Shown: one piece after another, positions 35,551 to 35,822 of the stretch
Position numbering within the stretch: the stretch's first letter is position 1
Layout: each line of letters starts with the position of its first letter
UHGV virus genome: UHGV-0167591
DNA from: a virus
Reading direction: 5' to 3' (one strand)
DNA: 64,000 bases
Translations under genes and position numbers: made by a program
Notes under the pieces: generated by a model
The model's database searches: none
Told to the model about the DNA's origin: nothing
Seen by the model: only the letters and a program-made list of their open reading frames with translations

Positions 35551-35658
35551 TTACTGTTTACTAAGTGCTTCAATGGCGCTAACAATGCCGCCTACAACTA
35601 TGGCAACAATGATAATGAGAACAATTGGATACTTGTCAGCAAAATCCCAGAAGCCCAT
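35551..35658 (-). CDS. Small hydrophobic peptide (tciC-like), 35 aa
   Basis: MGFWDFADKYPIVLIIIVAIVVGGIVSAIEALSKQ; ATG overlaps the upstream stop (ATGA). Confidence 0.45.
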   Translation of the reverse strand: MGFWDFADKYPIVLIIIVAIVVGGIVSAIEALSKQ

Positions 35659-35822
35659 CACTGATCCTTCGAAGCTGTTTTAAATATCGGCCATACCAAT
35701 GTTACAGCTACTGCTACCAACGCACCGTCGGATAAAACCGACAGGACTGTGCTGGTGAAATCCACCAGCACAGATAGCACGAGAAAAACCAAAGCCAGAA
35801 TTAGACGTGCTTTTATAACCAT
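35658..35822 (-). CDS. Small membrane peptide (tciB-like), 54 aa
   Basis: MVIKARLILALVFLVLSVLVDF...; ATG overlaps the tciA stop (ATGA). Confidence 0.45.
   Translation of the reverse strand: MVIKARLILALVFLVLSVLVDFTSTVLSVLSDGALVAVAVTLVWPIFKTASKDQ

Follow-up and report, generated by a model that had tools for sequence, protein, structure and literature searches.

The closest described relatives of the locus analyzed here are the tciABC genes of phage P1 and their equivalents in phage P7. In P1, the gene order is dmt–tRNAs–plp/upl–tciA–tciB–tciC–trnI–ban. The P1 reference record lists all three ORFs as CDS under the names tciA, tciB, and tciC (AAQ14045.1 for TciB and AAQ14046.1 for TciC), and the P1 annotation assigned these names "by homology". 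The P7 equivalents of tciB and tciC are named upf69.4 and upf69.6, respectively (Upf69.6 is TciC). Peptides of TciA were found by LC–MS/MS in P1 preparations (PMC9024508). A genome-wide CRISPRi screen of P1 scored tciA, tciB, and tciC all as non-essential (PMC10695390). P1-like plasmids vary in eight regions, of which the operon is one, and it has been lost from about half of the members of one P1 subgroup (PMC9603915). The tci transcripts also respond to the loss of hfq (bioRxiv 10.64898/2025.12.28.696737). According to Millman et al. (bioRxiv 10.1101/2022.05.11.491447), TerB itself has been shown to associate with membranes, and the Bunzi and Shango defence systems include TerB domains; the TerB protein of Bunzi has transmembrane helices of its own.

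The window, by which we mean the whole stretch of 64,000 nucleotides from UHGV virus genome UHGV-0167591, carries the same genes. Its minus-strand block at 35551–36247 shared 96.7% nucleotide identity over 697 nt with P1 tciA–tciB–tciC, and 97.8% identity with the corresponding block of Salmonella phage SJ46. The neighboring genes in the window also matched the P1 gene order. In the whole window, 15 matches to the 17-nt P1 C1 operator consensus were found (≤3 mismatches), against 0.32 expected by chance. The two half-sites of the operator Oban, at 37792–37808 and 37803–37819, matched the consensus with one mismatch and perfectly, respectively. The whole window is P1-like, immunity-controlled DNA. 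Because of the identity to P1, the P1 annotation, and the C1 operators, we identified the window as a P1-like phage-plasmid and its two small ORFs as the named genes tciB and tciC. Both genes have been annotated in P1 since 2004, and finding them here is a rediscovery, not a discovery. The features of the locus are as follows.

35822..36247, minus strand: tciA, first gene of the trio, encoding a 141-aa soluble TerB-domain protein (Pfam TerB PF05099, phrog_632)
35658..35822, minus strand: tciB, encoding a 54-aa DUF3927 peptide, predicted to be a membrane peptide (PF13064, phrog_1470, P1 TciB annotation)
35551..35658, minus strand: tciC, predicted to encode a 35-aa single-pass membrane peptide, or 36 aa from a GTG at 35661 (phrog_23152, P1 and P7 annotation)
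35820..35824, minus strand: TGATG overlap of the tciA stop and the tciB start (direct sequence reading)
35656..35660, minus strand: TGATG overlap of the tciB stop and the tciC start (direct sequence reading)
35665..35669, minus strand: AAGGA, putative ribosome-binding site of tciC within the last tciB codons (6 nt 5′ of the ATG; kept in P1 and P7)
35472..35547, minus strand: tRNA with a CAT anticodon, trnI of P1 (ARAGORN and Rfam tRNA; P1 tRNA-Ile2)
37792..37819, unstranded: bivalent C1 operator Oban with the Pban promoter, from which P1 expresses the tRNA–tciABC–trnI–ban operon (C1 consensus matches; aligns with the annotated P1 Oban)
33827..35197, minus strand: ban, a DnaB-type helicase gene, downstream in the same operon (ORF and P1 annotation)
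37810–40116: dmt, a 768-aa fused methyltransferase gene, upstream of the tci trio (ORF and P1 gene order)

The original prediction had placed two ORFs of 54 and 35 aa after a TerB-like gene and described their products as hydrophobic. The lengths and coordinates were right, the preceding 141-aa ORF passed the Pfam TerB model, and both small peptides were strongly hydrophobic. As in P1 and P7, the two genes come after tciA and before trnI/ban within the C1-controlled ban operon, with the same lengths and the same junctions. A difference is that the window has another tciC allele, which is itself common. Three plus-strand ORFs (35573–35683, 35625–35735, and 35749–35952) were set aside, as they are antisense to two family-matched genes.

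Genes for tRNA-Thr and tRNA-Asn are also located upstream of tciA, and the minus strand showed no terminator-like site from tciA to ban. The trnI tRNA is on the same strand as tciC and begins 3 nt past its stop; it must therefore be cut out of the same transcript. ARAGORN called this tRNA Met from its CAT anticodon; the P1 and RefSeq records call it tRNA-Ile (ileX-like). We propose that tciABC, the three tRNAs, and ban would be transcribed together from the C1-repressed Pban. Because of this promoter, tciABC would be switched on at prophage derepression. The sole sigma-70-like promoter match in 33800–38200 was located inside tciC (35612–35639, minus strand; CTGACA, a 16-nt spacer, and CATTAT; 9/12), where it faces the tRNA and ban. 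The match is weak, and shuffled sequence contained more such matches than the region did.

TciA of the window was identical to P1 TciA, and the gene differed from that of P1 at 7 of 426 nt (1.6%). Against Pfam TerB (PF05099), TciA scored 28.4 bits (gathering cutoff 24.4, E = 2.1e-6), and it matched phrog_632 with an E value of 7e-62. No hydrophobic segment was found in it; the best 19-residue Kyte–Doolittle mean was 1.2. The tciA leader contained a below-threshold match to the Rfam sRNA family STnc100 (36281–36401, minus strand; 37.8 bits, against a gathering score of 47; E = 5.5e-7). The 21-nt hairpin core of this match, CACCGGGAGGCACCCGGCACC, was also found at 2252–2272 in locus L004, at 2779–2799 in locus L079, and in others. 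P1-type loci have the core upstream of tciA, whereas lambdoid and Stx-type loci have it past the DUF3927 gene, about 120 nt downstream. The STnc100-like core thus borders the TerB–DUF3927 module on different sides in different phages.

TciB matched Pfam DUF3927 (PF13064) with 101.4 bits (cutoff 25, E = 2.6e-29), with residues 2–54 aligned to positions 1–53 of the 53-position model. It also matched phrog_1470 ("TciB-like"). It is a typical, full-length member of Pfam DUF3927/PHROG 1470 with the invariant VDFT…S…DG core, and two of its 54 residues differed from P1 TciB. The relatives checked were those of P7, D6, Actinobacillus pPE4, Klebsiella Kp4866-6 and pJN2-26, and Escherichia LMessi and Cyrano, together with 80 IMG/VR loci selected out of 373 confirmed relatives. 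Eleven residues were invariant across seven divergent sequences (R6, L14, V18, D21, F22, T23, S28, D32, G33, L35, and P45). In all annotated phages and IMG/VR loci examined, the DUF3927 ORF directly followed the TerB-like gene with a 1- or 4-nt overlap. This stop/start overlap was kept in 15 of 15 distinct IMG/VR TciB types and in eight annotated phages, the junction in relatives reading TGATG, TAATG, or GTGA. The dN/dS of tciB was 0.23–0.37. Judged from these substitutions, purifying selection acts on tciB, which is a real gene. The original prediction had named conservation in relatives as a check that could refute it, and such conservation was found for both peptides: TciB is kept from P1 to lambdoid phages of Klebsiella, Escherichia, and Actinobacillus, and TciC across P1-, P7-, and D6-type elements. 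By this measure, both frames are more than chance.

Both products had been predicted to be single-pass membrane peptides. For TciC the prediction stood, as it has one apolar stretch of 18–19 residues (residues 11–29). Acidic residues are located on the N-terminal side of this stretch and the C-terminus is basic (strongly basic in D6), suggesting that the N-terminus faces out and the C-terminus in. For TciB a single pass is doubtful. It has two hydrophobic maxima, at about residues 7–20 and 34–47, which are parted by an invariant polar motif (D21-F-T…S28…D32-G33), and it has basic residues at both ends. The conserved polar stripe formed by D21, S24/T25, S28, and S31/D32 would fall on one helix face. 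AlphaFold modeled TciB as one continuous helix covering residues 2–53 (pLDDT 88). This straight-helix model has a pTM of 0.46 and is compatible with either a hairpin or one long helix, and the predicted topology of TciB may be either. We propose that both peptides would enter the inner membrane, TciC in a single pass with its basic C-terminus probably inside the cell, and TciB as a hairpin or as one long helix with the conserved Asp/Ser/Thr polar stripe.

The junctions had been described as ATGA overlaps, and this was incorrect. Both read TGATG on the minus strand, where the TGA stop and the following ATG share their A, giving a 1-nt overlap. Overlapping stop/start signals of this coupled-pair type are kept among homologues, which have TGATG, TAATG, GTGA, or ATGA. 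The predicted pairing with the 16S rRNA 3′ end was −6.3 kcal/mol for tciA, −5.5 kcal/mol for tciC, and −3.3 kcal/mol for tciB, whereas the mean for random positions was −2.1 kcal/mol. The tciB ribosome-binding site was similarly weak in eight of the nine phages compared, the exception being pPE4 (−5.6 kcal/mol). Because the tciB ribosome-binding site is weak and the overlap is conserved, termination–reinitiation coupling of tciB to tciA is most likely the way in which tciB is translated, as far as its sequence signals can tell. Ribosomes ending at the tciA stop would restart on the overlapping tciB ATG, and the output of TciB would be tied to that of TciA. tciC has the same type of overlap and a moderate ribosome-binding site of its own, which it would use in addition. 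Coupled small membrane proteins of other bacterial operons share these features, namely the overlap, a weak downstream ribosome-binding site, a length below 60 aa, and a hydrophobic core.

In 18 Stx-phage-type IMG/VR loci (L079, 2067–2498, and 17 similar ones of the L064–L093 group), an amber codon interrupts the frame of the TerB-like gene, with TAG in place of the GAG of a relative. These loci nevertheless keep an intact DUF3927 gene with its GTGA junction. In these Stx-phage-like prophages, a 616-aa ORF is also located downstream of DUF3927. The amber loci argue against a strict dependence of TciB on TciA, but the codon may be a recent lesion in one lineage.

TciC matched PHROG 23152 with an E value of 9.1e-25, residues 1–35 covering the 35 model positions. 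Its range was narrow: among the loci examined, it was present in P1-, P7-, and D6-type elements only, and the lambdoid-type and SSU5-type loci had no equivalent. An alternative GTG start is located one codon upstream, at 35661, and would give 36 aa and a 4-nt GTGA overlap. In phage D6 (MF356679.1; locus L008, 1631–1744), we found an unannotated TciC homologue of 36/37 aa, MMDFWTYIDKNPGWSLLFLLVIVYGVEQVAKNLRRRK, with an ATGA overlap with the tciB stop. D6 has an ATG at the position equivalent to the GTG, so that the tciB/tciC junction there reads ATGATG. In the Salmonella plasmid pSa1423-90k (NZ_MK356557.1; locus L009, 1200–1500), D6-type tciB and tciC are both frameshifted and a 22-aa fragment is annotated; either the module is decaying there or the assembly contains indel errors.

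tciC is also a local hot spot of divergence. It has two main alleles, carrying Tyr10 or His10, and TciC of the window differed from that of P1 at nine of 35 residues and from that of P7 at nine of 35 as well. Each allele occurs with both the 141-aa (P1-type) and the 144-aa (P7-type) TerB gene. The sharing of alleles across tciA types therefore indicates mosaic recombination with a breakpoint inside tciB, and it also speaks against allele-specific co-adaptation of tciA and tciC.

This divergence bears on whether tciC is a gene. The 108 nt between tciB and the tRNA might instead be an untranslated spacer or the 5′ leader of trnI, maybe with an internal promoter, that is open by chance. tciC is the most diverged part of the block, with 12 of 108 nt (11%) differing from P1 as compared with 7 of 426 in tciA; its dN/dS was 0.89, and its polymorphic sites were distributed almost evenly over the three codon positions (8/6/9), all of which would suit a spacer. 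However, the tciC frame was intact (34–36 aa) in 57 of 57 P1/D6-type loci, with stops in both other frames in every allele, and its start overlaps the tciB stop with the AAGGA 6 nt upstream. The replacements in the membrane segment kept its hydrophobicity, all of them being among V, I, A, G, S, and L with one polar exception. That exception is Gly24 to Asp in the 34-aa TciC of locus L015 (IMG/VR 2908543018_000007). Simulated substitution sets were as good as the observed set (no stops, no polar residue in the segment, as conservative) in 3.7% of cases, a combined p of about 0.04. The weak 9/12 promoter-like site inside tciC (35639–35612) and the missing RefSeq PGAP call also favor a spacer, as does the single 50%-identity TciC cluster obtained when 1.84 billion representative proteins were searched exhaustively with HMMER. 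Against these stands the D6 allele. At 42% nucleotide identity, it keeps the length, the overlap with tciB, and the basic C-terminal tail. It also keeps F-W-x-[FY]-x-D-K-x-P as its N-terminal motif, in which the codons of F3, D8, and P11 have changed synonymously. Its sole match in the PHROG search was the TciC family, weak (E = 0.17) but end to end. From this pattern of conservation, we consider tciC likely to be a real coding gene, apparently under weak constraint, and a spacer improbable.

Two further explanations concern the role of the peptides. TciB, with or without TciC, might act on its own as a membrane-active peptide, such as a holin, an antiholin, or a small toxin, that tunes lysis timing or membrane potential, with TciA as its regulator and not an anchored partner. 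Such peptides are typically small and hydrophobic and have charged ends, as these do, and the DUF3927 gene is retained in the loci with an amber codon in the TerB-like gene. The TerB–DUF3927 pair is located between the Q antiterminator and the holin/endolysin genes in the lambdoid phages LMessi and pPE4; however, the interval between Q and the lysis genes is also a classic site of unrelated cargo genes, and holins are annotated separately in the lambdoid loci. The P1 genes belong to the early ban operon, which is distant from the lysis genes, and neither peptide matched a holin family in Pfam or PHROGs. CRISPRi knock-down caused no plaque defect (PMC10695390). We regard this role as unlikely. 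A type I toxin was also set aside, as nothing pointed to an antisense RNA and both peptides are encoded in a sense operon with tciA. The P1 names suggest something else again, a reduced tellurite/colicin resistance determinant that works like terZABCDEF. The TerB domain of TciA is shared with the ter operon, and the P1 annotation and later reviews repeat the assignment by homology. But a TerB homologue is all that the operon has of ter: TciB and TciC had no match to TerC or TerD in Pfam, and the operon consists of tciA, tciB, tciC, tRNAs, and ban only. In work on D6-like elements the operon has been described as incomplete, and no resistance phenotype was reported in the literature found. The absence of TerC and TerD led us to reject tellurite resistance as a working model, and we consider a ter-like determinant very unlikely.

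We favored, at somewhat better than even probability, the explanation that tciB and tciC belong to the C1-controlled tciABC genes and encode membrane partners of the TerB protein TciA, in a dispensable accessory module. Soluble TciA would have TciB as its obligatory partner or anchor in the membrane, and we infer that the two form a complex. TciC would be an accessory subunit specific to the P1 lineage. The trio would form a small, non-essential, membrane-associated module, whose role may be to alter the envelope or to survey it, such as by handling ions or metals or by keeping out other phages or colicins. TerB-domain proteins are a likeness to the Bunzi and Shango systems, but the tci locus has no helicase or ATPase partner. 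The transmembrane helices of the Bunzi TerB protein are comparable to the tci pairing of a soluble TerB protein with membrane peptides, but they are fused to the protein in Bunzi, whereas the tci locus encodes separate membrane micro-proteins. PADLOC models, including those of Shango and Bunzi, gave no match to the three tci proteins at E values up to 1, and NCBIfam models gave none either.

The original prediction had also stated that such micro-proteins are usually unannotated. This was not so for tciB, which was annotated in every record inspected and has its own Pfam and PHROG families. tciC is annotated in the GenBank records of P1, P7, SJ46, and JL22. The region is carried by 298 complete E. 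coli genomes, and the sampled RefSeq PGAP records list only the TerB and DUF3927 genes. One RefSeq record inspected in full had TerB, DUF3927, tRNA-Ile, and dnaB, without tciC. The D6 record has no tciC, and the paper on D6-like plasmids names tciA and tciB only. The exact TciC sequence of the window was found on at least 1000 public contigs, mostly as "hypothetical protein". Because the RefSeq pipeline leaves out tciC, the statement is true of tciC only, and this micro-protein is missing from most annotations of P1-like plasmids.

A wider reading is that the TerB and DUF3927 pair is a self-contained mobile module that monitors the envelope or excludes competing phages or colicins, which we consider quite unlikely. 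The pair, always joined by a stop/start overlap, is carried by unrelated temperate phages and phage-plasmids, and the micro-protein could then be the membrane sensor or effector. TciC could be a fast-evolving add-on of the P1 lineage whose membrane segment diversifies under conflict, in keeping with its two old alleles and a dN/dS of about 0.9. If this reading is true, the TerB domain would gain its first defined minimal partner. The TerB–DUF3927 pair with its conserved overlap is a clean two-gene module that is easy to test, and it could illuminate what TerB does at membranes.
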